Positions 28,132-42,164 of a DNA stretch of 48,850 nt are shown here, piece by piece. The first letter of the stretch is position 1. The number at the start of each line of letters is the position of its first letter. Source of the stretch: Candidatus Eiseniibacteriota bacterium (GTDB lineage Bacteria > Eisenbacteria > RBG-16-71-46); assembly GCA_041483195.1 (NCBI GenBank), contig JBGPFC010000031.1, forward strand, positions 1-48,850. The letters are read 5' to 3'. A program made the position numbers and the translations under genes. Below the pieces are notes generated by a model that made no database searches, was not told the DNA's origin, and saw nothing but the letters and a program-made list of their open reading frames with translations.

Positions 28132-31100
28132 CTACCTCAGCAACAGCATCTTCCGCTGCTGCGTGAGGCGTCCCAACTCGAGACGGTAGAAGTAGACGCC
28201 GCTTGCCATGCCCCTCACGGTGAGGTCCACCCCGTAACGTCCCGGGGTCTGGCGCTGATTCACCAGCGTCTGCACCACGCGGCCCTGCACGTCGAACAGC
28301 CTGAGCACCACCTGCTGCGTGGACGGGATCGAGTACACGATGCGCGTGTACCCGCGGACCGGGTTCGGGAAGTTCTGCGAGAGCGACAACACGCGTGGCA
28401 CGCTCGTGTCGATCTGCTCGACGCCGACCAGCAGCGAGTCGCTGCCGCCGAACTGATAGTAGCGCGCCGCGAATTCCTGCAGGTACTGGTTGGTGACGTC
28501 GGGATCGTGAATGATGAGCGTGTTCTCGTTGTTCGAGTTTTCCGCGGCGCTCGACCAGTTGTGCGAGCCGGTGAGGGTCACGGCATCCCAGGTCGGATTC
28601 TCCGCGTCGAACAGGCAGTACTTGTGGTGGAGCAGGCCGGAGGCCCCGGTCTTCAGGCGAATGTCCACCCCGTTCCCGAGCAGATACGAGTACTGCGATC
28701 CGGCGTCGGAGCTGGCGTCGAGATCGCCGCGCACCTTGATGCTCGCCAGGTGCCTGGCCACCAGCGCCGCCGAGATGTCGGTGCGCGTCAGCGTCAGCAG
28801 CTGGAACCCGATCGAGTGCTGCGCTGCGTTGATCCTCGAGATGATCTGAGAGGTCGGGGCGTCGGACGGGCTGAAGTAGCTCTCCACGTCGTGCCCACCG
28901 ATCACGAACTTGTGCGGCGTGTCGTCGAGCTTGCGGGCGCCGAACCGCGACGCGGCTGCATTCGGCGTGTCGGTGCCGCTCCCCCACATCTCGTTGAACT
29001 CGAGGGTGTACGCGTTCGCCAGCGCCAGGTCCTGGACTTCGATCGAGTTCTGGAAGTCGCTGTTGGTGCCGGGGTCGGTCGGGTTCCATGAGCCGGTCCA
29101 CACCCACGCGCTCTCGGCCGCGCCACCGCGCCCGTCGATGACGAAGAACTTGTTGTGCATCAGCCCGAGCCCGTTGTTGGTGGCGTCGAAGCGGTCGGTG
29201 ATCAGCGGAATGCCGCCGCCGCTGATCGCGGTGAAGCCGGAGCCGGTCTTGTTGTCCTCCTCGCAGATGACCCGCACCTTCACGCCCCGGTTCTTCGCGT
29301 TGATCAGCGCGGTGGCGAGCGTGCCGCCCGGAGTGCCGCTCAGGCTGTAGATCGCGGCATCGATCGAACGCTGCGCGTTGTCGAGGCGCGGCACCAGCCT
29401 CGCCGGGAGGTCCTGGTTGCCGTTCGCGGCATGAAGCCACGCGACGCTCGTGTTCACGCTCTTGTTGAAGTACACGTTCATCTGCCCGCTCGACTGCGCG
29501 GGCGATGCGGTGCTGAACAACCGCGCCGGGGCGAAGTTGACGCCGTTCACGTCCTCCGAGCCCACGCTGTAGTCGTACACCGTGGCGGGCGTGAGGCCGG
29601 TCACCGTCACCGCGTGGACCGTCACCGGCGTGGAATCGACGGCGCTGTCGCCGAGCGCGAGCGTGAGTCCGTAGCGGACGATGCTCGAGGACGCGACGTC
29701 GGTGGTCCAATGCAGCTGCACCGAGGTCGGCAGGATGTGGTCCTCGTATGGGGTCGTGAGAATGATCGGACCCGGGTGGGCGATGATGTCGGTCGAATCC
29801 CGCGGCGCGATCTCGTAGTCCGCGGTGTAGGGCGGGCCCGGCGCGGGCGTGCCGGGCTTGAACTGCTTCAGGATCCCGATCACGTCGAAGACGCTCGGCA
29901 CCGGCGGGAACGACGTCGGAATGAAGATGTTGGTGGTGCCGGATGGGTCGGTAATGGTCGACGTGGTCGAGTTGTAGGTCGCCCCGTCGATGCGGATCAG
30001 CCGCCCCTCGTTGGGCTCGGTGTAGTCGGGGTGGAAGGTGGCGGTGACTTCCGCGCAGGTGAGCACCAGGGGTTCGGGGATCGGGCGCCCGGTCGCGTGC
30101 CTCACGAGCAGCGAGAAGTCGGGCTGAAGCTCCGTGATGCCGCGGAACTGAGCAATCGAGCCGGTCACGGTGAGACTGTCGCCCGGCTGGATCGAGAACG
30201 GCGGCAGGTCAAAGCTGAAGATGTCGATCCCGGCGGTGCCATCCTGCAGGTAGAGATCGGTTCGGACGCTGCTCAGGTTGGCGGTGACGACGCCGGTCAC
30301 GGTGGCCTCGGCGCCCGGCGCGTAAGGAGAGGCGGCAACGCCGGAGGCGTCGTTCACGTGCACGACGACGATCGGCACCAGCTCGAGCACGCGCACGTGC
30401 GGATACACGAGAATCTGCGTGAGCGTTCCCGAGGCGACCGCGGTCTTCACCGCGAAGGTGGAGTTCCCGCTCGTGGGCGGCGAGGTGAGGTTCGCGATGG
30501 TGACGCTGCCGCTGTCGGCTGTGCTCAGCGTCGCCGAGGCGATGAACAGCGTGTCGCCGGCGATGGTCGGCGTCGCGCTCGCGAAGCCCGGCCCGCTCAG
30601 CACCACCGACCCCACGTCGTGCGACCACGTCCAGTCGGACGGCACGATGATCGAGAGGTTGGTGAGCGTGTACGTCGAGTCCTGCCCGAAGGCGATCTTC
30701 AGCGAATCGAGCGAGCGGCTGGTATACACGCTCACCGGCGCGATGCTCGCGCGCCCGGTTCCGTTTCCTCCCACCACGAAAGTCGGCTCCGGCGGATTGG
30801 AGCTGTTCTGCGGATTGCGGCCGTGGGTCTGGGTGACATAGTCGGCGGAATTGTTGTTCGTGTCCTGCCCGTTCCCGAGCAACTGGTGCGCTCCCCCGGC
30901 CGCAAGCGAATCGGCGGTGGACGTGGATATCGCCTTGCGCTCGACGCTGTTTCCGTTCGCGCTGATGCCGTGGTTCGGCGCGGCCGAGCCCTCGGGATTG
31001 ACCGCCGTACCCCAGCCCACCTTGTCCACCTCGACGGCGGACGTGTCGATCATGCGCTCGTGGCCGTTGTCGGCCATACCCTGTCCCGATCCCCACAACC

Positions 31101-31452
31101 CCGAGGTGTAGTCCGGGGTAGCCGAACTCGAGTACGTGCCAGCACTGTTGACGAGCAGGAAGAACCCGTGCGCCGCGATGGACGAATTCGCCGGCAGAAT
31201 CGCGCGGTCGCTCCAGGTGGTGCCATTGGTCGCCGCCGAGTACTGGAGCTTCCAGCCGGAGATGTCGATCGCGTTGTCGGTGGGGTTGTAAAGCTCGACG
31301 AATTCATCCGTGGCGGACGACGGGCCGCGCGTGGCGAACTCGCTGATCACGACGTGATTCGCGACGGCTCCCGCGGGGGGAACCACGGCCAGCATCAGGG
31401 CTGGGATCGCGAGCATGGCGAGAGCGCTGGAAAGGCGTGGCAGGAAGCGCAT
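28132..31452 (-). CDS. Secreted multidomain PLD-superfamily protein (lamin-tail domain, OB-like, Fn3-like, two HKD motifs, T9SS-type C-terminal domain); probable nuclease or phospholipase
   Basis: VVISEF..DEFVELYNPT; HNKFFVID and HHKYCLFD; QNFPNP...ASGVYFYRL. Confidence 0.88.
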   Translation of the reverse strand: MRFLPRLSSALAMLAIPALMLAVVPPAGAVANHVVISEFATRGPSSATDEFVELYNPTDNAIDISGWKLQYSAATNGTTWSDRAILPANSSIAAHGFFLLVNSAGTYSSSATPDYTSGLWGSGQGMADNGHERMIDTSAVEVDKVGWGTAVNPEGSAAPNHGISANGNSVERKAISTSTADSLAAGGAHQLLGNGQDTNNNSADYVTQTHGRNPQNSSNPPEPTFVVGGNGTGRASIAPVSVYTSRSLDSLKIAFGQDSTYTLTNLSIIVPSDWTWSHDVGSVVLSGPGFASATPTIAGDTLFIASATLSTADSGSVTIANLTSPPTSGNSTFAVKTAVASGTLTQILVYPHVRVLELVPIVVVHVNDASGVAASPYAPGAEATVTGVVTANLSSVRTDLYLQDGTAGIDIFSFDLPPFSIQPGDSLTVTGSIAQFRGITELQPDFSLLVRHATGRPIPEPLVLTCAEVTATFHPDYTEPNEGRLIRIDGATYNSTTSTITDPSGTTNIFIPTSFPPVPSVFDVIGILKQFKPGTPAPGPPYTADYEIAPRDSTDIIAHPGPIILTTPYEDHILPTSVQLHWTTDVASSSIVRYGLTLALGDSAVDSTPVTVHAVTVTGLTPATVYDYSVGSEDVNGVNFAPARLFSTASPAQSSGQMNVYFNKSVNTSVAWLHAANGNQDLPARLVPRLDNAQRSIDAAIYSLSGTPGGTLATALINAKNRGVKVRVICEEDNKTGSGFTAISGGGIPLITDRFDATNNGLGLMHNKFFVIDGRGGAAESAWVWTGSWNPTDPGTNSDFQNSIEVQDLALANAYTLEFNEMWGSGTDTPNAAASRFGARKLDDTPHKFVIGGHDVESYFSPSDAPTSQIISRINAAQHSIGFQLLTLTRTDISAALVARHLASIKVRGDLDASSDAGSQYSYLLGNGVDIRLKTGASGLLHHKYCLFDAENPTWDAVTLTGSHNWSSAAENSNNENTLIIHDPDVTNQYLQEFAARYYQFGGSDSLLVGVEQIDTSVPRVLSLSQNFPNPVRGYTRIVYSIPSTQQVVLRLFDVQGRVVQTLVNQRQTPGRYGVDLTVRGMASGVYFYRLELGRLTQQRKMLLLR

Positions 31453-31543
31453 GGAAGCTCCGCTCGAGGGATGGGAAATGCATCCGGGTTGTTGATCGAG
31501 CGTATCACGCGAACCGGAGCCCGGACTAGCGCAGCCTCGCATG

Positions 31544-32011: not shown

Positions 32012-32040
32012 TTGCGCGAATCGCCCGTTCCGCCGATACT
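32012..32040 (+). promoter_or_regulatory. Sigma70 promoter of csp copy 1
   Basis: TTGCGC-17 bp-GATACT, conserved in all three copies. Confidence 0.75.
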
Positions 32041-32046
32041 GCTCCC

Positions 32047-32234
32047 GTCTACCGGTTGCCGTCGATGTGCCGCGAAGCGCCTTCTGATGCCGCCAGGTTG
32101 ATCCGGCGGCATTTTTGTTGGCCGCGCGGCTCTCGCGAATCGGAGACATCGGTCAGAGTGACCGAATCGTGGCCGCCACGTTCAGGCGGAGTTACTGCAA
32201 CCCTCGGGTCGCAGGTTACGCAAGGAGCAGTTCA
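32047..32234 (+). ncRNA. Conserved structured 5' leader of csp copy 1 (5' end approximate)
   Basis: Four hairpins shared with copies 2 and 3, the first followed by a U-tract. Confidence 0.65.
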
Positions 32235-32435
32235 GTGGCTATCGGAACCGTGAAGTGGTTCAACGAGGCGAAGGGTTTCGGCTTCATCTCCCAGGAAGGT
32301 GGCGAGGACGTGTTCGTCCATTTCTCCACGATCCAGGGCGACGGCTTCAAGACTCTGGCCGAAGGCGAGAAGGTGGAATTCGACGTGACGCGTGGGCCGA
32401 AGGGTCTGCAGGCGGCGAACGTCCGCAAGGCCTAG
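32235..32435 (+). CDS. cspA: Cold-shock protein, copy 1
   Basis: AAGGAG RBS; GTG start; KWFN, KGFGFI (RNP1), DVFVHF (RNP2); 66 aa. Confidence 0.97.
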
Positions 32436-32462
32436 GTCGTCTCGAGGAATCACCTCGCATCT

Positions 32463-32501
32463 AGAGGGCGGCGAGCTTCTGCTCCCGCCCTCTGTTGTTT
32501 T
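32463..32501 (+). terminator. Intrinsic terminator
   Basis: AGAGGGCGG...CCGCCCTCT stem followed by GTTGTTTT. Confidence 0.8.
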
Positions 32502-32550
32502 GGGGCCGCGCGACGGTCCGGACACCCGTCGCGCGGCCGCCTCACGTCCC

Positions 32551-33711
32551 CTACGGCTTGACCGTGAACGCCGCCGAGGCGCGCGTCGTGTCCCAGTCGA
32601 GGTTCAGCGTCCCGCCCTGCGCGTTCGGATCGATGCCGATCGTGAAACGCTCGACCGGGGTCGGCAGCGCGCTCACCGTCATGTCGATCGTGAAGAGATC
32701 CTTCGCCGCCTTGTGCTCGGTGCCCCACTGGCCGGTCTCGCCGTTGATGATGAGCTTCCAGTGGTTCGGCCCCGGGATGGTCCACAGCGTGTAGAAGCCC
32801 GCGGGCACCACCGTGCCGCCGAAGTCGAGCGTCTTGTCGGTCTTGAACTGCGTCGCCGCGTTCGCGCCGGTGCGCCACACCTCGCCGAACGGCTCGAGAC
32901 CGCCTAAGACCACGCGGCCGCGCTTGGCGGGCCGGCCGTAATCCACCCACAACGATGCGCCGCCGGCGTTGCCCGCGCGCACCGTATCGCGCGGCGAGAG
33001 CACGCCCAGGCCCGCGCCCGCCTGCTCGCGCGCCGCGAACAGGGCCGTCATCGCGTTCAGGTCGAGCGTCGCGACCCGCTCCGGACTGAACTTCGCGGTG
33101 CCCGAGATCGGGAGCACGCCGAGGATGTGGCCCGCCTTGTCCACCCGCGCGTGGAACACGTCCAGATGGCCGTTCGCAACCCCGATCGAATCGCGTCCCA
33201 GCTTGTGCAGGCTGAGCCAGTCGGCGTTCGGGAAGCCCACCATGTACATCGTCGTGCGCAGGCTGTCGCTCTTGCCCGCGATCAGCTTCATGAACAGCCC
33301 CTCGTAGCCCGCCCACGGGCTCGAGCCGGCCACCACCAGCGCGCCGGCCGGCATCGCGACATTCAGGTTCGTCGCCGGCGCGCTGCCGCTGTGGATCTGG
33401 AAGCGCATCGAGTCGCCGCCGAACGTTCCGTCGATGGTCTGCGTCGGGGTGGTGGCGCCCGGGGGCGTGACCACCATCGCGAAGTGGGAGATCGCGCCGT
33501 TCACGTAGTCGTACGTGAAGTGGCGCTGCAACACCCGGGGCGATCGGCCGACCTGGTCCACCTCGAGGCGCGAGGCCGTACGAACGTAGTGCTCGACACT
33601 GGTCGTGTCCGAGCCGAGCCGGACCACGAAGTTTCCGGAATCTTCGGCCGCCGCGGGGGCGGCGAGCGCGAGCGTGACGAGCGAAGCGAGGGCGAGGCGA
33701 TTGCACTTCAT
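32551..33711 (-). CDS. Exported DUF2911-domain protein
   Basis: Signal peptide; SPRDT..YGRPAKRGR..VWRTGANAAT..GQWG. Confidence 0.85.
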   Translation of the reverse strand: MKCNRLALASLVTLALAAPAAAEDSGNFVVRLGSDTTSVEHYVRTASRLEVDQVGRSPRVLQRHFTYDYVNGAISHFAMVVTPPGATTPTQTIDGTFGGDSMRFQIHSGSAPATNLNVAMPAGALVVAGSSPWAGYEGLFMKLIAGKSDSLRTTMYMVGFPNADWLSLHKLGRDSIGVANGHLDVFHARVDKAGHILGVLPISGTAKFSPERVATLDLNAMTALFAAREQAGAGLGVLSPRDTVRAGNAGGASLWVDYGRPAKRGRVVLGGLEPFGEVWRTGANAATQFKTDKTLDFGGTVVPAGFYTLWTIPGPNHWKLIINGETGQWGTEHKAAKDLFTIDMTVSALPTPVERFTIGIDPNAQGGTLNLDWDTTRASAAFTVKP

Positions 33712-33886
33712 GCGTGGCTCCTGGGTGGAGGACGGTTCGAGTCGGCCGCCGCGGATATTACTCCCACGGGTGCCCCCCCACGCCAGCCCCGCCCGAGTTT
33801 CGCGTTCTGAAATTTACAGGCGCCGATTCGATGCGGTAGTCTGAGGGCGTGCGCCCGGTCCGTCATGGACCACAGAGAATGGGGAG

Positions 33887-35047
33887 GTGCTCCTGGGTTC
33901 GAACACCTTCGGCATGCGGCTCGACGGAATCGCCGCCTATGCTCCCGACCAGGTCTGGAGCAACGGGCGCGTGGCTGCCCGCCTCCGCCTCGAGCGCATG
34001 CGCCTGCGCGAACGCAGGAGCCATGACGGTGCCGAACCGCTGACCGCGGAAGAGGCCAAGCTCTTCCAGAGCAGCGATCGCTGGGTGCGCCGATTCATCG
34101 GGTTCAACGAGCGACGCTTCGCCTGCGACGGAACGGGAACCATCGATCTCGCCACCCGCGCGGCGCGACAGCTGTTCGAGGGTTCCGGCCACTCCCCCGC
34201 CGACATCGACGGCATCATCGTGGGCAGCGTGACGCCCTCCTACCTCTACAGCCCACCGGACGCGGCGTTGCTCCAGGACGCGCTGGGCGTTCCGGTCTGG
34301 CAGGGAACGACGCCGCGCGAGATCAAGGGCGCAGACGTGTCGCTCGCGTGCAGCACCTGGGTCACCTCGCTGATGCTCTGCTACGCCCTGATCCGCTCCG
34401 GGATGGCGCGACGCATCCTCCTGATCGGCGCCGACCGGATGAGCGCCACCATCAACTGGCGGGACCGAAGCTTCGCGACCGTGCTGGGTGACGCCGGCAC
34501 CGCCACGCTGTGCACGGCGGTCGCGGAGGACGAAGACTGGTTCGCGCCATCGCGATTCTGGAGCTGGCTCGACGGCGGCCAGGCGGAGATGATCCGCACC
34601 CCGGTCGGAGGCTCGAGATTTCCCTCGCCGTCTCCCGAGGAGCTCGATGCCGGCAAGCACCGGCTCGCGATGGACGGCGCGGCGGTGCGCCAGGTGCTGG
34701 TTCCCTTCGTCGGCGGGCCTGCGATGGAAGCGGCGCTCGCCAAGGCGGCCTGGAATTTCGGCGACCTCGATGCCGCGGTGCTGCACGAGGCCAACCCGAT
34801 GCTCAACGAGTCCATCGTCCGCACCTGGCGCGAGCACGGATTCCGCGGCCGGGTGGTGACCGCCGGCGGCCGGTTCGGCAACACGACCAGCGCTTCCATT
34901 CCGCTCGCGCTGGCGTTGCATGCGTCGGAGCTGGCGATCGGCACGCGTCTCGGGATGGTCGGATTCGGCGGCGGGCTCTCCGCGAGCTTCGCGTTCGCCA
35001 CCGTTCGCCACGCGCTCAGGTCGTGGACGAACCTGGCCGAAGGCTGA
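33887..35047 (+). CDS. 3-oxoacyl-ACP synthase III (FabH-like) family protein
   Basis: Cys-His-Asn triad (LACS, LHEAN, FGNTTSASIP); GFGGGL; start uncertain. Confidence 0.88.
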   Translation: MLLGSNTFGMRLDGIAAYAPDQVWSNGRVAARLRLERMRLRERRSHDGAEPLTAEEAKLFQSSDRWVRRFIGFNERRFACDGTGTIDLATRAARQLFEGSGHSPADIDGIIVGSVTPSYLYSPPDAALLQDALGVPVWQGTTPREIKGADVSLACSTWVTSLMLCYALIRSGMARRILLIGADRMSATINWRDRSFATVLGDAGTATLCTAVAEDEDWFAPSRFWSWLDGGQAEMIRTPVGGSRFPSPSPEELDAGKHRLAMDGAAVRQVLVPFVGGPAMEAALAKAAWNFGDLDAAVLHEANPMLNESIVRTWREHGFRGRVVTAGGRFGNTTSASIPLALALHASELAIGTRLGMVGFGGGLSASFAFATVRHALRSWTNLAEG

Positions 35048-35128
35048 GGTCGAGCCGCCGCGCCGCGGCTCCAAGCCGCTGGCACCACGCGTTCTCGCTC
35101 GGAAACCGAGAAAATCTTCAGAATCCGC

Positions 35129-35157
35129 TTGCGCCAAACGCCGGTCCCGCCGATACT
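35129..35157 (+). promoter_or_regulatory. Sigma70 promoter of csp copy 2
   Basis: TTGCGC-17 bp-GATACT. Confidence 0.75.
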
Positions 35158-35163
35158 GCGTAT

Positions 35164-35350
35164 GTCTTCCGGTTGCCGTGGATGTGCTGCCAAGCGCCTT
35201 CAGATGCCGCCAGGTTGATCTGGCGGCTTTTTCGTTGGCCGGGCCACCTTCCCGATCGGAGACACCGGTCAGAGTGACCGAATCGTAGCCGCCACGTTGG
35301 GCGGAGAAACTGCGATCGCAAGGTCGCATGTCAATCGAAGGAGCAGCACA
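35164..35350 (+). ncRNA. Conserved structured 5' leader of csp copy 2 (5' end approximate)
   Basis: Same four hairpins; GCCGCCAG/CTGGCGGC stem plus TTTTT. Confidence 0.65.
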
Positions 35351-35551
35351 GTGGCTAGTGGAACCGTGAAGTGGTTCAACGAGGCGAAGGGTTTCGGCTT
35401 CATCTCTCAGGAAGGTGGCGAGGACGTGTTCGTCCATTTCTCCACCATCCAGGGTGACGGCTTCAAGACCCTGGCCGAAGGCGAGCGCGTCGAGTTCGAA
35501 GTGACCCGTGGGCCCAAGGGCCTGCAGACGTCGAGCGTCCGCAAGGCTTAG
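35351..35551 (+). CDS. cspA: Cold-shock protein, copy 2
   Basis: RNP1 and RNP2 motifs; 60/66 aa identical to copy 1 by manual count. Confidence 0.97.
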
Positions 35552-35578
35552 TTCGTCTCGGGGAAGCACTCGCATCGT

Positions 35579-35619
35579 GAGGGCGGCGAGCTTCGGCTCG
35601 CCGCCCTCTGTTGTTTTTT
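35579..35619 (+). terminator. Intrinsic terminator
   Basis: Perfect 13-bp stem, cUUCGg loop, then TGTTGTTTTTT. Confidence 0.9.
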
Positions 35620-35672
35620 CTCGAGCGATTGCTACGCTCGCCGGGTCCCTGGGTGGAACGGCGGAGCGAGCG

Positions 35673-36434
35673 ATGAAATTCCCGAGCACGAGAATTCCGG
35701 TGGCGGCGGGCCTGATGATCCTGCTGTGCGGGGCATCGAGCGCCCCGGCCCCGACGCTCGCCGCGCCTCCGATTCCGGCGAGCGCCGGTTCGACGCCCGA
35801 AGCCGGCGCCGCTCACGCGCCCGATCGGTTCTTCTACATGTTCATGGTCGGCTCGACGCGGTGGCCGGCCGTGCACGAGCTGGTCCCCGCCCCGGCGGCG
35901 TTCAGCCCGCGCTTCGGCGGCCGCTTCCAGCCATGGGGCTGGACCATCGAGCTGGCCTGGCAGCGCAGGGTGCGCGAGGCGCGCGGCACCGGCGTGTTCG
36001 TCGGAGGCGACTTCGGGAGCTTCGCGCACGGATCCGGATGGAGAAACGTCGGGGTCGACGCGTTCACCGGCAGGCCGGTTCGAGGCGAGATGTTCGCGAC
36101 CGCGGGTCACCTCACGCTGAGCGGGCGCATGGTGTGGCGCGAAGGGAAGGCCCTCACCCTCCATTGCGCATCCGGCGCCGGGCTCTACCTGGTTCGGATC
36201 AAGGACAACATCGAGGGGACTGGGATGACGGAGACCGGCAACCACGCCGCCTCCCCCGGCGGCTACGTCGGAGCCGGACTCGACCGGCTCGTGTGGCGCA
36301 GGGCCGGGATCGGCCTGCACATCGAGGGCCGCGTTCACGTCTTCGAGTTCGACGATCTGGGTCCGGGCTTCCCGGGCCAGCGGGCATCGGGTCCGCTCTA
36401 TCAGCTGGCGGGAGCGCTCTCGTTCTGGAGCTGA
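35673..36434 (+). CDS. Hypothetical exported protein, probable outer-membrane beta-barrel
   Basis: Signal-like N-terminus; alternating Gly/aromatic strands; aromatic C-terminus (ALSFWS). Confidence 0.6.
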   Translation: MKFPSTRIPVAAGLMILLCGASSAPAPTLAAPPIPASAGSTPEAGAAHAPDRFFYMFMVGSTRWPAVHELVPAPAAFSPRFGGRFQPWGWTIELAWQRRVREARGTGVFVGGDFGSFAHGSGWRNVGVDAFTGRPVRGEMFATAGHLTLSGRMVWREGKALTLHCASGAGLYLVRIKDNIEGTGMTETGNHAASPGGYVGAGLDRLVWRRAGIGLHIEGRVHVFEFDDLGPGFPGQRASGPLYQLAGALSFWS

Positions 36435-38053
36435 GGCGCGGCCCCGGCCTCGAGCACGCACACCAGCCCGCGAATGAGCTGGTCGCGCTCGCGGCGCAGG
36501 TCCGCTTCGGCCGCCGACACGCAGCGGAAGCCGTGGCCCTCGCAGAGCGCTGCGAGGTACGCACGCGCATGCCGGTAGCGTCCGGATGACGCCAGCACGA
36601 AGCGATCGACGGCGTCATCGCCGCTTTCGACCGTGAACGCGAAGAGCCCCCCCGTGCGCAATGCGCGGCGAACGGAGGCGAACAGCGGCGCCAGCTCGCC
36701 GAAGTAGCTCAGCACGTCGGCGGCCACCGCGATGTCGTAGCGGCCGGCCTCGGCGGCCGCCAGGAACTCGACGAGATCGCGCGCCTCGAGCGCGTCGTAG
36801 ACGCCAAGCGCCCGCGCCTTCTGCAGCATCTTCGGGGAGAGATCGACCCCCGTGAGCCGGCGCGAGAGCGGCTTGAGCCTCGCCCCCATCAGTCCGGTTC
36901 CGCAGCCCAGGTCCAGCACCTCGCAGGGCGCGCGGTCCCGCGGCCGGGCGCTCGCGAGCGCCGCCTCGAGCAGGTCCGGCGCCCGATACTCGAGCTGCTC
37001 GGTCAGGTGCCGGTCGAACTTGTCGGCGTACGCGTCGAACAGATCGCGAACGTAGCGGGCGGGCGGGCGTTCCGACTGGACGCCCCGGATCACGTTGACG
37101 AAGTGGCCGGCCGCGCCGTGGTCGGGATCGAGCACGAGCGCGCGCTCGAGGCACCGCAGGGCCTCCTCGTTCAGCCCCTGCCTGCTCAGCGCGATCCCCA
37201 GATTCGCGAGTACGTCCGCCGAATCCGGCCGCAGCTCGGCCGCGCGCCGCATGGCCCGCAGCGCGTCCTCCATCCGGCCGTCCTCCTGCAGCGTGAGGCC
37301 GAGATTGTTGAAGGCGTCGGCGCTCCGCGATCCGAGCGCGATCGCCCGCTCGAAGCAGGCCGCGGCCTCGGCGAGGCGTCCCACGCGATAGTGCACGTTC
37401 CCCATGTTGTAGTGCGCCTCGTGAAATTCCGGCGCGATCCCGGCGGCACCCTGAAATTCGGCCAGCGCGGCATCGAGCTCGCCCCGGTCGAAGTGCACGC
37501 TGCCGAGATTGAGGCGCGCCTCGGCGGAATCCGGGTCGAGCGACCGCGCCTGCCGCAACGCGTCTTCGGCTTCATCGAGTCGTCCGCACAACCTCAGGGC
37601 ATTGCCGAGACCGCTCCATGCGGGGGCCAGCGCGGGTTCGAGCCTCACGGCCTCGCGATAGGCATCCGCAGCTTCGGCACTCCTGCCCTGCCGCGTGAGC
37701 GCATCGCCGAGATTGCCGAAAGCTGTCGCGTAGTCCGGTTTCAGCGCCAGCGCGGCCCGGTAGCTCGCTTCCGCCTCCGCGCACCGGCCGAGCGATTCGA
37801 GCGCCAGGCCCAGGTTGCAATGCATCTGCGGATGCGATCTCAACGACAGCGCGCGCCCGATCAGCCGGAGCGCGCCCTCGAAGTCGCCGCTCTGGTACGC
37901 GACGGTGCCCAGCAGGTGGAGCGCATCGACGTTGTCGGCGTCCGCTTCGATCACCTTCTGATAGAGCTCGCGCGCGAGATCGAGCTGCCCCGCCTGCTGG
38001 TAGCGCATGGCGAGGTCCACCGCCTGCGGAAGCGTGAGGCTCGAGGAGTTCAT
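36401..38053 (-). CDS. TPR-repeat protein with class I SAM-dependent methyltransferase
   Basis: Multiple TPRs; LFDAYADKFD; VLDLGCGTG; GVDLSPKML; SGRYRH. Confidence 0.9.
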   Translation of the reverse strand: MNSSSLTLPQAVDLAMRYQQAGQLDLARELYQKVIEADADNVDALHLLGTVAYQSGDFEGALRLIGRALSLRSHPQMHCNLGLALESLGRCAEAEASYRAALALKPDYATAFGNLGDALTRQGRSAEAADAYREAVRLEPALAPAWSGLGNALRLCGRLDEAEDALRQARSLDPDSAEARLNLGSVHFDRGELDAALAEFQGAAGIAPEFHEAHYNMGNVHYRVGRLAEAAACFERAIALGSRSADAFNNLGLTLQEDGRMEDALRAMRRAAELRPDSADVLANLGIALSRQGLNEEALRCLERALVLDPDHGAAGHFVNVIRGVQSERPPARYVRDLFDAYADKFDRHLTEQLEYRAPDLLEAALASARPRDRAPCEVLDLGCGTGLMGARLKPLSRRLTGVDLSPKMLQKARALGVYDALEARDLVEFLAAAEAGRYDIAVAADVLSYFGELAPLFASVRRALRTGGLFAFTVESGDDAVDRFVLASSGRYRHARAYLAALCEGHGFRCVSAAEADLRRERDQLIRGLVCVLEAGAAPQLQNESAPAS

Positions 38054-38080
38054 GGGCGCCGGCGGGCCGCTTCGATCGGG

Positions 38081-38545
38081 CTACGCCCGTCCCTCGCGCA
38101 CCATGCCTTCGAGGATGCGCTCGATCTTGGTGGCCTGCGCCTCGAGGTGCAGCAGGATGGCTTCGATCTCCCGTTCGGCCTTGACGTTCACCTGGTAGTC
38201 CGATTCGGCGCGCGCCTCGGAGTGCCGGCTCTGGAGATTCTGGCCGACCATGATCAGCGGCATCAGGCAGATCTGGATCATGTTCGAGATGAACAGCCAC
38301 AGCACGAACGCCGGATAGGGATCGAAGCGCGACTGCCTGGGGCCGAGGGCGTTCCAGCCCAGCCACAACAGCGTCCAGGTGACGATGATGAGGAAGAAGC
38401 CCATCGATCCCACGTGATCGGTGATCCAGATCGCGACCCGTTCGAGGGGCCTGAGACGCTGCGCGTGGATCTCGTTCACGTTCCGCAACGGAGCGCGGAG
38501 CGCCTTGAGCTTCTCGAGTGAAGGCGGGTGCGGGATCTCGTCCAT
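38081..38545 (-). CDS. DUF1003 membrane protein
   Basis: VGSMGFF; FDPYP; PLIMVGQN; DYQVNVKAE. Confidence 0.88.
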   Translation of the reverse strand: MDEIPHPPSLEKLKALRAPLRNVNEIHAQRLRPLERVAIWITDHVGSMGFFLIIVTWTLLWLGWNALGPRQSRFDPYPAFVLWLFISNMIQICLMPLIMVGQNLQSRHSEARAESDYQVNVKAEREIEAILLHLEAQATKIERILEGMVREGRA

Positions 38546-38593
38546 GGCATCTTCCTTTCGGGGGGCGTGGCGAGGGCGTCCGGCGAACGACAG

Positions 38594-38953
38594 TTATTCG
38601 TTCGGCTCGGCGTTGCGCCTCGGCGCCTGCGGGATTCCGTAGAGGAGGATGGGCCGGAAGCCGTGCTCGCGCGCGTGGAGCTCGCCGATCCGCTGGACTC
38701 CGAACCGTCCCAGCTGCAGGGCGAGGTCGAAGCGCCCACAGCGTAGCGCGCGGCGCACCTGCCAGGCCACCGCATACTCGACGAACGTGATGCGATCCTC
38801 GGTGGTGACCTCCGCGAACTCGATGTCGCGGAGCCCCTCCTCCACCTCCGCCATCAGCCGATCGGGATCGAGCGCCTCCGCGTCCGACGGCTGGGCGTCC
38901 GAGCGCGGCCACGAGCGCCGAATGTGTCTGTCCCACAATGATGGAAGTCGCAT
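38594..38953 (-). CDS. Hypothetical protein
   Basis: Fills the gap between two same-strand genes with host-like codons; no motif recognised. Confidence 0.45.
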   Translation of the reverse strand: MRLPSLWDRHIRRSWPRSDAQPSDAEALDPDRLMAEVEEGLRDIEFAEVTTEDRITFVEYAVAWQVRRALRCGRFDLALQLGRFGVQRIGELHAREHGFRPILLYGIPQAPRRNAEPNE

Positions 38954-38978
38954 CGCCGGCGAGCCCCCGGATGGCGCG

Positions 38979-40958
38979 CTACGCGGCGCGCGCCCGCTCC
39001 CACACGCGGATGGGAAGGATGATGGCCTGCATGCCCAGAAACTGGAGCCGGCGCTGGATCGAGAACGCCGTCTCGTGGTGGAGCATGCGCGTGAACAGAT
39101 TCTCGCGCTGGAACACCAGCTGTCCCGTGAACACCACCGGGCGCCGGAATTCCCGCATCAGGTCCACGCACAGCGCCTCGAGCTCGTGCACCAGATCGGT
39201 CCCCAGCGCGTAGCGGTACTCGGCGTACACGCCCATGCGCTGGGCGAGTTGGGCGTATTGCTCGAGGTCGCCGCGCACCTTCCGCTCCAGCGCGCTCAGC
39301 TCGTCCACCCCCTTGAACTGCGCGGAATCCACGAAGCCCACCGAGACGAACACGAAGTTCTTGAAGTGGCGCGGGAAGAGGCGCAGCACCGAGAGCAACG
39401 TGTGCACGCCGAGGCCGCTGTAGCTCTCGACCAGCACGATCGCGGTGGATCCGTCGACCGCGAGCTGAGGCGGGGTCTTGGGCTCGGGTAGCGGCAGGTT
39501 GAGCAGCGCGTCGTCGAGCGATGCGAGATTGCGGCGCACGCGCTGATAGTGGTGCCGGATGGCGAAGCACACGCCGATCAGCGCCGAGGTGGCCAGCAGC
39601 GTGATCCAGCCTCCCTCCCGGAACTTGAGGGTCGCCGTGATCGCGAGGATGGTCGCGGTCACCAGCGCTCCCACCGTGTTCACGATCAGGCGCCGCCGCC
39701 AGTGCGCCTCGGTCCTGCGCACCGCGAGCCAGTGGCGGGCCATGCCCATCTGGCTGAGCGTGAAGGTCATGAACACGTTGATCGAGTACATGACCACCAG
39801 CAGCCCGACCGCGCCCCGGGTGTAGGCGAGCACCGCCCCCGCCGCGAGCCCCATGGTGACCACGCCGTTCTGCGTGACGAAGCGCTCGGAGAGGTTCTTG
39901 TAGCGCTTCGGCACCCATTCGTCGGCCGCCATCGCGGCCAGCGTGCGCGGGCCATCGAGGAAACCGGTCTGCGCCGCGACGAACAGCAGCGCGCCCTCCG
40001 AGATCAGCGTGAAGCCGACCACCGCCGGGCCGATCGCGAATCCTCCCAGGTTCCAGCCGTGGGTGAGCAGGTCCCAGAGCGAGGCGTTGAGCGTCTTGCC
40101 GCTCTCGAACTGCACGTTGTTGAGGAGGTAGCACAGCAGGATGCCGCCGGCCGTGAAGGCGAGCGAGCACGACATGTAGAGCATGGTGCGCTTGCCGTTT
40201 TCGACGCGCGGCTGACGCAGGATGCCGACGCCGTTGCTCACCGCTTCGATCCCGGTGAACGTGCCGCCTCCGAGCGAGAACGCGCGGAGGATGATCACCC
40301 CCACGCCGATCAGGCCCAGCTGGGAGACCGCCTGGTGGCTCTCCTCGACCGTGCTCGGGATCAGGTGCCCGAGGTCGCGGCTGTGGCGCAGCACCCCGAA
40401 GGCGATCAGCCCGATGTGGCTCACGATGAAGGCGAGGAAGATCGGCGTGAGCACGTAGACCGACTCCTTGACCCCGCGCAGGTTGAGCAGGATGAGCGCG
40501 CCCACCACCGCGTACTCGGAGGGCAGCTTGAGCCCCTGCAGGGGAACCGGGATGAACGAGAAGATCGCGTCGCAGCCGGCCGCCACCGAGATCGAGATCG
40601 TGAGGATGTAGTCGACGACCAGCGCGCCCCCCGAGATCACGCCCGGCGTCGGCCCGAGCAGCTTGCTCGCGACCAGGTAACCACCGCCGCCGGTGGGGAA
40701 CTGCTCGATGATCTGGCTGTAGGAGGCCGAGATCAGGAAGACGGTCGCGACGATCGCGCCCACCAGGTAGAGCGCGAGGTGACGGTGCGCGCCGAGCTGG
40801 CGAAAGATTTCTTCGGGGCCATAGCACGACGACGAGAGGCCGTCCGAGCCCAGGCCCACCCACGCGAAGAACGCGATCAACGCCAGGTGCTGGTGGATCC
40901 GCGGGTCGAAGAGGTTCTTGGGCCCGCCGAGGAGCAGGGCGCGCAGCCTCTCGATCAT
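38979..40958 (-). CDS. APC family permease, KimA-like probable K+ transporter
   Basis: DGLSSSCYGPEE; GGGGY; DYILT; NLRGVKES; TGIEAVSNGV; cytoplasmic C-terminal domain. Confidence 0.9.
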   Translation of the reverse strand: MIERLRALLLGGPKNLFDPRIHQHLALIAFFAWVGLGSDGLSSSCYGPEEIFRQLGAHRHLALYLVGAIVATVFLISASYSQIIEQFPTGGGGYLVASKLLGPTPGVISGGALVVDYILTISISVAAGCDAIFSFIPVPLQGLKLPSEYAVVGALILLNLRGVKESVYVLTPIFLAFIVSHIGLIAFGVLRHSRDLGHLIPSTVEESHQAVSQLGLIGVGVIILRAFSLGGGTFTGIEAVSNGVGILRQPRVENGKRTMLYMSCSLAFTAGGILLCYLLNNVQFESGKTLNASLWDLLTHGWNLGGFAIGPAVVGFTLISEGALLFVAAQTGFLDGPRTLAAMAADEWVPKRYKNLSERFVTQNGVVTMGLAAGAVLAYTRGAVGLLVVMYSINVFMTFTLSQMGMARHWLAVRRTEAHWRRRLIVNTVGALVTATILAITATLKFREGGWITLLATSALIGVCFAIRHHYQRVRRNLASLDDALLNLPLPEPKTPPQLAVDGSTAIVLVESYSGLGVHTLLSVLRLFPRHFKNFVFVSVGFVDSAQFKGVDELSALERKVRGDLEQYAQLAQRMGVYAEYRYALGTDLVHELEALCVDLMREFRRPVVFTGQLVFQRENLFTRMLHHETAFSIQRRLQFLGMQAIILPIRVWERARAA

Positions 40959-41046
40959 CGGCGTTGGCCCTCGCGCGGCATCTCACGCGCGGGGAATGGG
41001 CGGCGGCAGCTCGCGTGCATATTCGAGCGTTCATTGAACCCCGCGC

Positions 41047-41067
41047 GGGTGTAAAAATGGCGTAAGG
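41047..41067 (-). promoter_or_regulatory. KdpE-box-like direct repeat
   Basis: Minus strand CCTTACGCCATTTTTACACCC; half-sites 11 bp apart, upstream of the permease. Confidence 0.45.
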
Positions 41068-41159
41068 AATTACTCGCGGCGGATTCGGGGCGCATCGAGG
41101 CCGACGCGGCTGGGCTCTCGGCCGGCCGGCCGGCGCGGGCAGGCACCCGCAAAACGCCC

Positions 41160-41188
41160 TTGCGTAAACCCCCGGTTCCGCCGACACT
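41160..41188 (+). promoter_or_regulatory. Sigma70 promoter of csp copy 3
   Basis: TTGCGT-17 bp-GACACT. Confidence 0.7.
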
Positions 41189-41194
41189 AGGGGT

Positions 41195-41382
41195 GTTCGC
41201 TGGTTGCCGTGGATGTGCCGCAAAGCGCGTTCTGATGCCGCCAGGATGATCTGGCGGTTTTTTTGTTGGGCGCGCGGCTCATGGCAATCGGGGACACCGG
41301 TCAGAGTGACCGAATCGTCGCCGCCACGTTCAGGCGGAGTTGCCGCGACTCTCGGGTCGCGGGTTACGCAAGGAGCAGCACA
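41195..41382 (+). ncRNA. Conserved structured 5' leader of csp copy 3 (5' end approximate)
   Basis: Same four hairpins; GCCGCCAG/CTGGCGGT stem plus T-tract. Confidence 0.65.
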
Positions 41383-41583
41383 GTGGCTACTGGAACCGTG
41401 AAGTGGTTCAACGAGGCGAAGGGTTTCGGATTTATCACCCAGGAAGGTGGCGAGGACGTGTTCGTCCACTTCTCCGCGATTCAGGGTGAGGGGTTCAAGA
41501 CCCTGGCCGAAGGCGAGAAGCTGGAGTTCGATGTCACCAAGGGCCCGAAGGGCCTGCAGGCGGCAAACGTCCGCAAGGCCTAG
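41383..41583 (+). CDS. cspA: Cold-shock protein, copy 3
   Basis: RNP1 and RNP2 motifs; 60/66 aa identical to copy 1 by manual count. Confidence 0.97.
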
Positions 41584-41609
41584 GTCGCCTCGAGGAATCA
41601 CCACGCAGT

Positions 41610-41753: not shown

Positions 41754-42164
41754 ATGCGAATCGGATCGGTCGCGGCACAGTCGGGAGTAAGCGCACAGAC
41801 TCTACGGTTCTACGAAAAGCGCGGCATTCTCGCCCCGCCCGCTCGCCTCACGTCGGGCTACCGCGATTACCCGGATGACACGGTGCGCATCGTGCGCTTC
41901 ATCCGCCGGGCTCAGCGGCTCGGATTCAGCCTCGTCGAGCTGCGGAGCCTGGTGCGTAGCGGAGCTGGAATCGGAGGGAACTGGCGAAGGCTGCGCCCGG
42001 CCTTCGAGCGAAAGACCGCGCAGTTGGAGCGCGACGCCCAGCTCCTTCAAGCTTCGATCGCTGAACTTCGAAGTTGTCTCGAGAGCTGCGGCTGCTGCAA
42101 TCCGGGAAAACCCTGCCGCAGCCCTCGGAGCGCCGTGCCGCAAACTCGCGGTCGCAGCACCTAG
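41754..42164 (+). CDS. MerR-family metal-responsive regulator
   Basis: MRIG...TLRFYEKRG...GYRDY...AQRLGFSL; Cys-rich C-terminus. Confidence 0.92.
   Translation: MRIGSVAAQSGVSAQTLRFYEKRGILAPPARLTSGYRDYPDDTVRIVRFIRRAQRLGFSLVELRSLVRSGAGIGGNWRRLRPAFERKTAQLERDAQLLQASIAELRSCLESCGCCNPGKPCRSPRSAVPQTRGRST

Follow-up and report, generated by a model that had tools for sequence, protein, structure and literature searches.

The window analysed here, 48,850 nt of contig JBGPFC010000031.1 from a Candidatus Eiseniibacteriota bacterium, contains three cold-shock protein genes (csp1, csp2, and csp3) of 66 codons each, all on the plus strand and all with a GTG start codon (32235–32435, 35351–35551, and 41383–41583). 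The stretch of about 240 nt upstream of each gene is 87% identical among the three copies (266 columns), and a structured leader of the same kind, about 190 nt long, precedes each coding region (Table 1). The three paralogues with this leader lie inside 9.5 kb (window 32047–41585), and the genes between them are unrelated (DUF2911, a KAS III-like enzyme, a TPR-methyltransferase, DUF1003, and a permease). Past csp3 lies a gene for a MerR-family regulator (41754–42164), and just upstream of csp1 there is a gene on the minus strand (28132–31542) whose 1136-aa product combines a lamin-tail domain and two PLD-like domains with a secretion sorting tail (Por_Secre_tail) at the C-terminus. The genome has six csp genes in total, of which four carry the leader, including a fourth copy on another contig. 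Of the other two genes, one is a fusion with a zinc-ribbon-like N-terminus and the other has a short unrelated leader; the zinc-ribbon-like paralogue is located on contig C20 (approximately 58820–59250, minus strand), with two CxxC pairs in its N-terminal stretch.

Table 1. Coordinates of the csp promoters, leaders, and associated elements in the window
Feature	Position	Strand	Remarks
csp1 promoter	32012–32040	+	-35 TTGCGC 32012–32017, 17-nt spacer, -10 GATACT 32035–32040
csp1 leader RNA	32047–32237	+	putative +1 G32047 through GTG 32235–32237; R1 133.3 bits, model positions 1–185
P1 clamp helix, 5ʹ strand	32047–32057	+	GTCT 32047–32050, CCGGTT 32052–32057; partner 32138–32147
Conserved single-stranded 5ʹ segment	32058–32088	+	includes TCGATGTGC, consensus TGGATGTGC; nearly invariant in leader alignments
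Hairpin T (terminator-like)	32089–32110	+	stem 32089–32097/32102–32110, loop TTGA 32098–32101, A32095/C32104 mismatch; -13.6 kcal/mol
U-tract	32111–32119	+	A-TTTTT-G-TT
P2 variable segment	32120–32137	+	pairs with 5ʹ segment; moderate support
P1 clamp helix, 3ʹ strand	32138–32147	+	AATCGGAGAC; covariation, single-sequence folds
Hairpin H_S	32149–32165	+	T-CGGTC / loop AGAGT / GACCG-A
Hairpin H_3	32173–32189	+	CCGCC / loop ACGTTCA / GGCGG; stem 32173–32177/32185–32189; seen in folds
Hairpin H_4	32195–32214	+	CTGCAACC / loop CTCG / GGTCGCAG; one A/C mismatch
RBS and start codon	32223–32237	+	AGGAG 32223–32227, GTG 32235–32237; predicted unpaired in consensus fold
csp1 CDS	32235–32435	+	66 aa, cold-shock domain; Pfam PF00313 (CSD), 103 bits
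csp1 3ʹ terminator	32464–32499	+	hairpin then CTGTTGTTTTGG; -21.6 kcal/mol
csp2 promoter	35129–35134, 35152–35157	+	TTGCGC, GATACT; read from sequence
csp2 leader	35164–35353	+	T 35206–35227; U-tract 35228–35236; P1 35164–35174 with 35254–35263
csp2 leader 3ʹ hairpins	35265–35281, 35289–35304, 35311–35328	+	H_S, H_3, and H_4, respectively
csp3 promoter	41160–41165, 41183–41188	+	TTGCGT, GACACT; read from sequence
csp3 leader	41195–41385	+	T 41237–41258; U-tract 41259–41267; P1 41195–41205 with 41286–41295
csp3 leader 3ʹ hairpins	41297–41313, 41321–41337, 41343–41362	+	H_S, H_3, and H_4, respectively

Upstream of each csp gene there is a pair of -35 and -10 elements spaced 17 nt apart, and a G lies 7 nt past each -10 element (32047, 35164, and 41195). 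The consensus of 61 homologous upstream regions shows CTtgc at -36 to -32 and GATAcT at -12 to -7, a variable discriminator between the -10 element and the start, and a sharp return of conservation exactly at the +1 G. Based on the conserved -35/-10 elements and this abrupt onset of conservation, we infer that the csp1 transcript starts at G32047, in agreement with the start site that had been proposed in the original prediction. Hairpin T and its U-tract are positioned between this presumed start and the start codon, with the conserved promoter upstream.

The elements that the original prediction had described in the three leaders were all found. The GC-rich hairpin followed by a U-tract (hairpin T) is present in each of them; a terminator scanner called the csp2 and csp3 copies (nine pairs each) and missed the csp1 copy owing to the mismatch in its stem. 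The hairpin CGGTC-AGAGT-GACCG (32150–32164 in csp1) is identical across the three copies, and the CCGCC/GGCGG stem further downstream has a loop of 7, 6, and 7 nt in csp1, csp2, and csp3, respectively. The stem proximal to the RBS (32195–32214) shows the described compensatory change, CTGC/GCAG versus CCGC/GCGG, together with a loop of CTCG versus GCAA.

A blastn search with the leader found it in 21 of the 89 genomes of the family, with the window's genome counted. A covariance model (R1), built from 22 leaders (alignment A2) with the structure set by hand, matched 86 of the 89 family genomes and 27 of the 28 genera, with 1–5 copies per genome. Across a phylum sample of 151 genomes, R1 had matches in 57/59 genomes of family f1, 6/6 of f2 (a count that takes in the unpublished genome G095), and 2/3 of f3, which belong to one order, and in 21/32 of f7, which belongs to the same class; there were no matches in the 50 genomes of 13 other families in this sample. 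When named genome records were scanned with a pattern, R1 fitted 8 of 80 among the matches listed, and most of the others were chance matches in GC-rich genomes. Seven of the eight fitting records, again among the matches listed, are named Candidatus Eisenbacteria bacterium and one is an uncultured bacterium.

All 68 aligned R1 hits are located directly upstream of a csp open reading frame. The start codons behind the leader are GTG in 64 cases, TTG in two, and ATG in one, with one of the 68 hits out of register; this near-strict use of GTG (64 of the 67 readable cases) suggests that the start codon may have a role in translational control. In the window's genome, nhmmer detected no stand-alone 5ʹ or 3ʹ leader domain beyond the four csp leaders. 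At one locus (L005), two leaders lie 550 nt apart, and some relatives have tandem csp genes with a full leader on each.

The leader had been predicted to be new, and no family in Rfam 15 reached its threshold on it. The only match was RF01766 (cspA), which scored 68.7 bits in the window against a gathering cut-off of 78 and 22.4–44.4 bits in four relatives. The RF01766 alignment begins at 32165, with most UTR positions of the model missing and numerous non-standard pairs; it is the coding region and the 3ʹ terminator that account for the score, not the leader. Judged from sequence comparison, it is well supported that the leader represents an uncatalogued structured RNA family that is restricted to this lineage and tied to one csp subfamily.

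RNAalifold on a plain MAFFT alignment recovered the terminator and one hairpin only, and a hand-set structure with realignment to the model was used instead. The resulting alignment (A3) holds 69 hits, 68 of them distinct, realigned to R1, and fitting sequences to a model in this way itself favours the structure. In A3, 91.2% of cells were paired, compared to 82.6% in shuffles, and 27 of the 36 pairs were altered on both sides by compensatory changes, with five helices supported. None of 500 shuffles matched the observed values on any of five measures, and when the partner columns were slid by 1–3 positions, the paired cells fell to 24–44%. The original prediction of a conserved, covarying, cis-acting csp RNA is borne out by these compensatory changes and by the presence of the leader in 86 of the 89 family genomes.

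The helix with the strongest record of change is the P1 clamp, in which all 10 pairs show compensatory change across the 68 leaders. P1 is a long-range helix, absent from the original prediction, that joins the 5ʹ end of the leader with a stretch downstream of the U-tract. Single-sequence folds provided checks independent of the A3 alignment, and they agreed with the clamp structure. When the first ~100 nt were folded at minimum energy, 64 of 66 leaders had six or more of their first 12 nt paired with the last 18 nt, and the number of clamp pairs per fold averaged 9.2, compared to 3.3 with the downstream part shuffled. All 22 leaders of the first round folded as one long stem. Inside the clamp, the P2 duplex was more stable than its shuffles (median z -1.65; 62/66 below 0 and 28/66 below -2), and the 5ʹ segment alone showed no extra structure (median z +0.26; 0/66 below -2). 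Since the clamp joins nucleotides that flank hairpin T on both sides, selection acts on transcripts that read through the hairpin.

Downstream of the clamp, H_S is paired in 95.6% of cells with compensatory changes at four of six pairs and an almost invariant inner stem, H_3 has compensatory changes at four of six pairs, and H_4 has them at six of six pairs with 95.6% of cells paired. Two features of conservation are not explained by the structure. The segment TGGATGTGC (window 32060–32075 and its homologues) is almost invariant, although its partner past the U-tract is highly variable; and in the hairpin at 32150–32164, the arms are invariant among homologues and the loop is variable. In addition, two leaders of one family genus (L085:418–530 and L084:395–534) lack the terminator module and keep the three 3ʹ hairpins, for which reason the leader looks modular. 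In L085, the 5ʹ domain is shrunk to a short terminal hairpin.

Several properties of hairpin T are those of an intrinsic terminator. Hairpin and U-tract are present in 66 of the 68 distinct leaders. The 9 nt after the stem contain at least five U in 64 of these 66 (median 7), with a run of at least five in 54/66, and the U-run starts 0–2 nt past the GC-rich stem. The T-run is strand-specific, and the genome has a G+C content of 70%. A strict terminator scan of both strands of the 4.17-Mb genome returned 59 sites, including three csp leaders but not the csp1 copy, which does not satisfy the rule. The leader hairpins have energies of -13.6 to -16.1 kcal/mol. Their U-tract weights, calculated with a scheme reportedly due to d'Aubenton-Carafa and recoded for this comparison, are 2.6–4.8, versus 1.6–3.0 for the genes' own 3ʹ terminators. 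The csp1 gene's own end carries the same type of signal as the leader hairpin, and the hairpin part of R1 also matches csp 3ʹ terminators in other families. The loop of hairpin T varies from 3 to 14 nt among leaders, and its outer five pairs (CCGCC/GGCGG) hardly vary in 62–66 of the 66 hairpin-bearing leaders. This near-invariance of the outer pairs is more than a plain terminator would need and counts against an attenuator, as do the two leaders that have no hairpin T. Likewise, the covariation of the clamp, which shows that the full-length leader is under selection, would fit a structural hairpin that does not terminate equally well.

Public RNA data were also consulted. Four public RNA runs covered the csp coding region, which is conserved in many organisms, with the promoter and most of the leader uncovered. 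Each of 24 matching public RNA runs shared only 0.15–0.18 of the words. The stretch 32050–32129 was covered by contigs from one run only (X3), and two of these link 32109 or 32126, across an unaligned part, with the beginning of the coding sequence. That the contigs reaching the hairpin region continue into the coding sequence counts against an attenuator, but the contigs are informative on neither RNA ends nor levels and may be of DNA origin.

The same module also turned up in csp leaders elsewhere in the class. The 16 csp genes considered for this came from 11 of 15 genomes belonging to families that lack the leader. With all filters off, R1 gave only weak local hairpin matches at these 16 loci (7–19 bits), and the leaders are not homologous. 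Within 300 nt upstream, a GC-rich hairpin followed by a T-tract (TTTTTTGTG-like) was called by the scanner in 8 of the 16, and one more was recognized by eye. A conserved TTGACC-17-TAnnnT promoter precedes the hairpin in four of four leaders of one family; outside those four, a hairpin may simply mark the end of a preceding gene. Should the pattern hold, the combination of hairpin and U-tract would be the sole feature common to the csp leaders of the class.

The original prediction had also held that upstream TGCCGT and TGCYGC segments could pair with the 3ʹ arm of hairpin T. Such pairing is possible in csp1 (eight pairs by inspection), but it is not conserved and does not compete with the hairpin, which forms in the nascent RNA with a median probability of 0.998 at 37, 20, and 5°C and is thus the default fold; the partner of these segments lies past the U-tract instead. 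Folding of the nascent RNA at the three temperatures revealed no mutually exclusive antiterminator in the leader, and the 39 nt upstream of the hairpin are unstructured. Because no fold rivals hairpin T, the regulation cannot be read from the RNA alone; and with no antiterminator encoded, the extent of read-through would have to depend on kinetics or on a factor acting in trans.

Two other routes of control were considered and rejected. For a leader peptide with ribosome-mediated attenuation, inspection showed that the ATG in TGGATGTG has no RBS, that family f7 has TGGAAGT instead, and that insertions and deletions separating this ATG from the hairpin have lengths not divisible by three. For pairing of the invariant TGGATG with CGTCCA in the stretch encoding VFVHF, the codons for Val and His differ freely among homologues and no corresponding change accompanies them.

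We put the chances at about even that the leader is an attenuator with an intrinsic terminator that some factor relieves in trans. Csp itself is the most plausible candidate for this factor, by analogy with Csp proteins elsewhere. Transcription would begin at G32047, and the first ~39 nt would stay unstructured. The GC-rich hairpin with its 5–8 U would then form about 40–70 nt into the transcript and would most likely stop RNA polymerase by default, leaving an RNA of 70–75 nt. By melting or blocking the hairpin, Csp could set the level of read-through, by analogy with Csp proteins that weaken intrinsic terminators and bind U/T runs elsewhere. In the read-through RNA, the 5ʹ end pairs behind the U-tract and encloses the hairpin in a long irregular stem, a structure that the covariation supports; the clamp may thereby bury the 5ʹ end and stabilize the full mRNA. 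The part downstream of the clamp consists of three small hairpins, likewise supported by covariation, and an RBS predicted to be open. The leader would in this way mark the inducible csp copies, that is, four of the six in the window's genome. If Csp does relieve termination, a positive feedback would result.

A more tentative account is that the hairpin causes no useful termination, and that the 100-nt 5ʹ-terminal stem stabilizes the mRNA or is removed from it by processing, with the exposed U-tract serving as a Csp site in the manner of Staphylococcus aureus cspA. Csp bound at the U-tract would melt the stem and feed back on its own mRNA. We regard this as possible, at rather less than even chances. 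Folds and covariation support a long irregular stem in which the 5ʹ end is paired, the outer stem is nearly invariant in sequence, and the strand opposite the U-tract is not A-rich, which leaves most U unpaired in the stem. The natural variant L085, in which the whole 5ʹ domain is cut to a short terminal hairpin, is also consistent with such a function, and there are S. aureus precedents in the accessible text of two papers, namely RNase III cleavage with a U-rich CspA site (PMC5815144) and UUUGUUU in the cspB/C hairpin (PMC8034633). On the other hand, the U-tract is always 0–2 nt from a GC-rich stem, which termination needs and a binding site does not, and the hairpin-plus-U module also occurs in leaders that are otherwise unalignable.

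A further elaboration of the attenuator, which we consider doubtful, is a device with two outputs. Here the 70–75-nt RNA made by the default terminator would titrate Csp, free Csp would open the terminator and yield more csp mRNA, and the clamp would lock and stabilize the read-through form. The invariant, unstructured 39-nt 5ʹ segment of the short RNA and its U-tail might bind Csp or pair with other RNAs. If true, this would be a protein-titration switch made from one RNA and common to all inducible csp copies, and it would have arisen anew in csp leaders of the class that are unrelated to these.

An RNA thermoswitch of the Escherichia coli, Listeria, or S. aureus cspB type, in which two exclusive folds hide or expose the RBS according to temperature, is unlikely, and we assign it a small probability. 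A long csp leader with a long imperfect 5ʹ hairpin is common to those systems, as far as the accessible text of PMC8034633 describes them, but the AGGAG and the start codon are predicted to be unpaired in the consensus fold. The predicted probability that the RBS is unpaired is flat in 67 leaders (0.49, 0.49, and 0.51 at 5, 20, and 37°C, respectively), and neither the consensus fold nor the temperature folds revealed a conserved anti-RBS segment in the leaders.

It is highly improbable that the first 70 nt constitute a separate small-RNA gene ending in a terminator of its own, followed by a second csp promoter past the hairpin. The promoter, conserved single-stranded segment, hairpin, and U-tail together do resemble such a gene, but the covarying clamp spans the hairpin, which implies one RNA across it, and no promoter-like conservation follows the U-tract. 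Moreover, every copy of the 5ʹ domain in the window's genome is found with a csp gene, and Hfq (PF17209) was not found in this genome, which is 96.8% complete. The least probable reading of all, that CCGCCAG...CTGGCGG is a DNA operator for a dimeric roadblock repressor and not an RNA hairpin, would accommodate the almost invariant outer half-sites. Against it stand the loop length of 3 to 14 nt, the strand-specific T-run, and the restriction of G-U pairs to the sense strand (the innermost modelled pair, for instance, is GU in five leaders).

Structured csp leaders are a textbook case of stress control at the RNA level, and those known come, to our knowledge, from a few cultured Proteobacteria and Firmicutes. 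The leader described here adds a new RNA family from an uncultured candidate phylum, with five covarying helices and more than 200 instances, and the R1 model and its alignment are fit for Rfam submission as they stand. In a literature search that covered mainly open-access papers, nothing was found that joins Eisenbacteria with cold shock, and no description of an intrinsic terminator inside a csp leader was found. An intrinsic-terminator attenuator, if confirmed, would be a compact, protein-responsive terminator.

The S. aureus and Listeria systems resemble the leader in its architecture. According to the available part of PMC8034633, the S. aureus cspB/C leaders contain a UUUGUUU motif and can switch from a long, open hairpin to a locked fold or back. 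The S. aureus cspB/cspC and Listeria cspA thermoswitches share with our leaders a long imperfect 5ʹ hairpin and csp paralogues with a common leader, and the U/G-rich motif UUUGUUU of S. aureus cspB/cspC is paralleled by UUUUUGUU here. Those thermoswitches are defined by an anti-RBS segment together with a locked fold in which the RBS is hidden; neither was found in the predicted structures here. In S. aureus cspA, CspA binds a U-rich motif in the 5ʹUTR hairpin of its own mRNA, and RNase III cuts this hairpin, as stated in the portion of PMC5815144 that was available. The long 5ʹ-end hairpin with a U-rich stretch is similar to ours, in which the U-tract lies inside the clamp-enclosed stem. There, Csp binds the hairpin and feeds back on its own mRNA. 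The U-rich motif of S. aureus, as far as that text describes it, is at the cleavage site with no terminator, whereas the U-run here comes directly after a GC stem.

The closest functional parallel is in E. coli. As summarized in the accessible text of a 2025 review (PMC12360218, citing Delaleau et al. 2024), the cspA/B/G leaders undergo Rho-dependent premature termination at 37°C, which cold masks and CspA restores. The idea of conditional premature termination in csp leaders is thus already described for E. coli (PMC12360218). In E. coli cspA/cspB/cspG as here, a long csp leader is present and transcription cut short before the coding sequence is proposed to gate expression, termination in our case being a prediction. 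On the account given in that review, E. coli uses a Rut site and Rho, in contrast to the GC hairpin and U-tract here; the RBS is masked in E. coli and predicted to be open here, and there is no homology in sequence or structure. The leader points to an intrinsic-terminator counterpart of this Rho-dependent logic, and if both termination and its control by Csp hold true, csp gating inside the leader would have evolved at least twice with different machinery. The affinity of Csp proteins for such U/T runs is illustrated by Bs-CspB, which binds dT7 with a KD of 1.8 nM (PMC1636342, in the text available). In E. coli, CspD acts co-transcriptionally at sgrS to lower intrinsic termination, and CspA/C/E are cited in the same source as having this effect at metY-rpsO, as far as its accessible part shows (PMC9765468). 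By analogy, this action supplies the trans-acting mechanism proposed here; the E. coli targets described there are terminators of other genes, whereas in the present case the terminator-like hairpin lies inside the csp leader itself.
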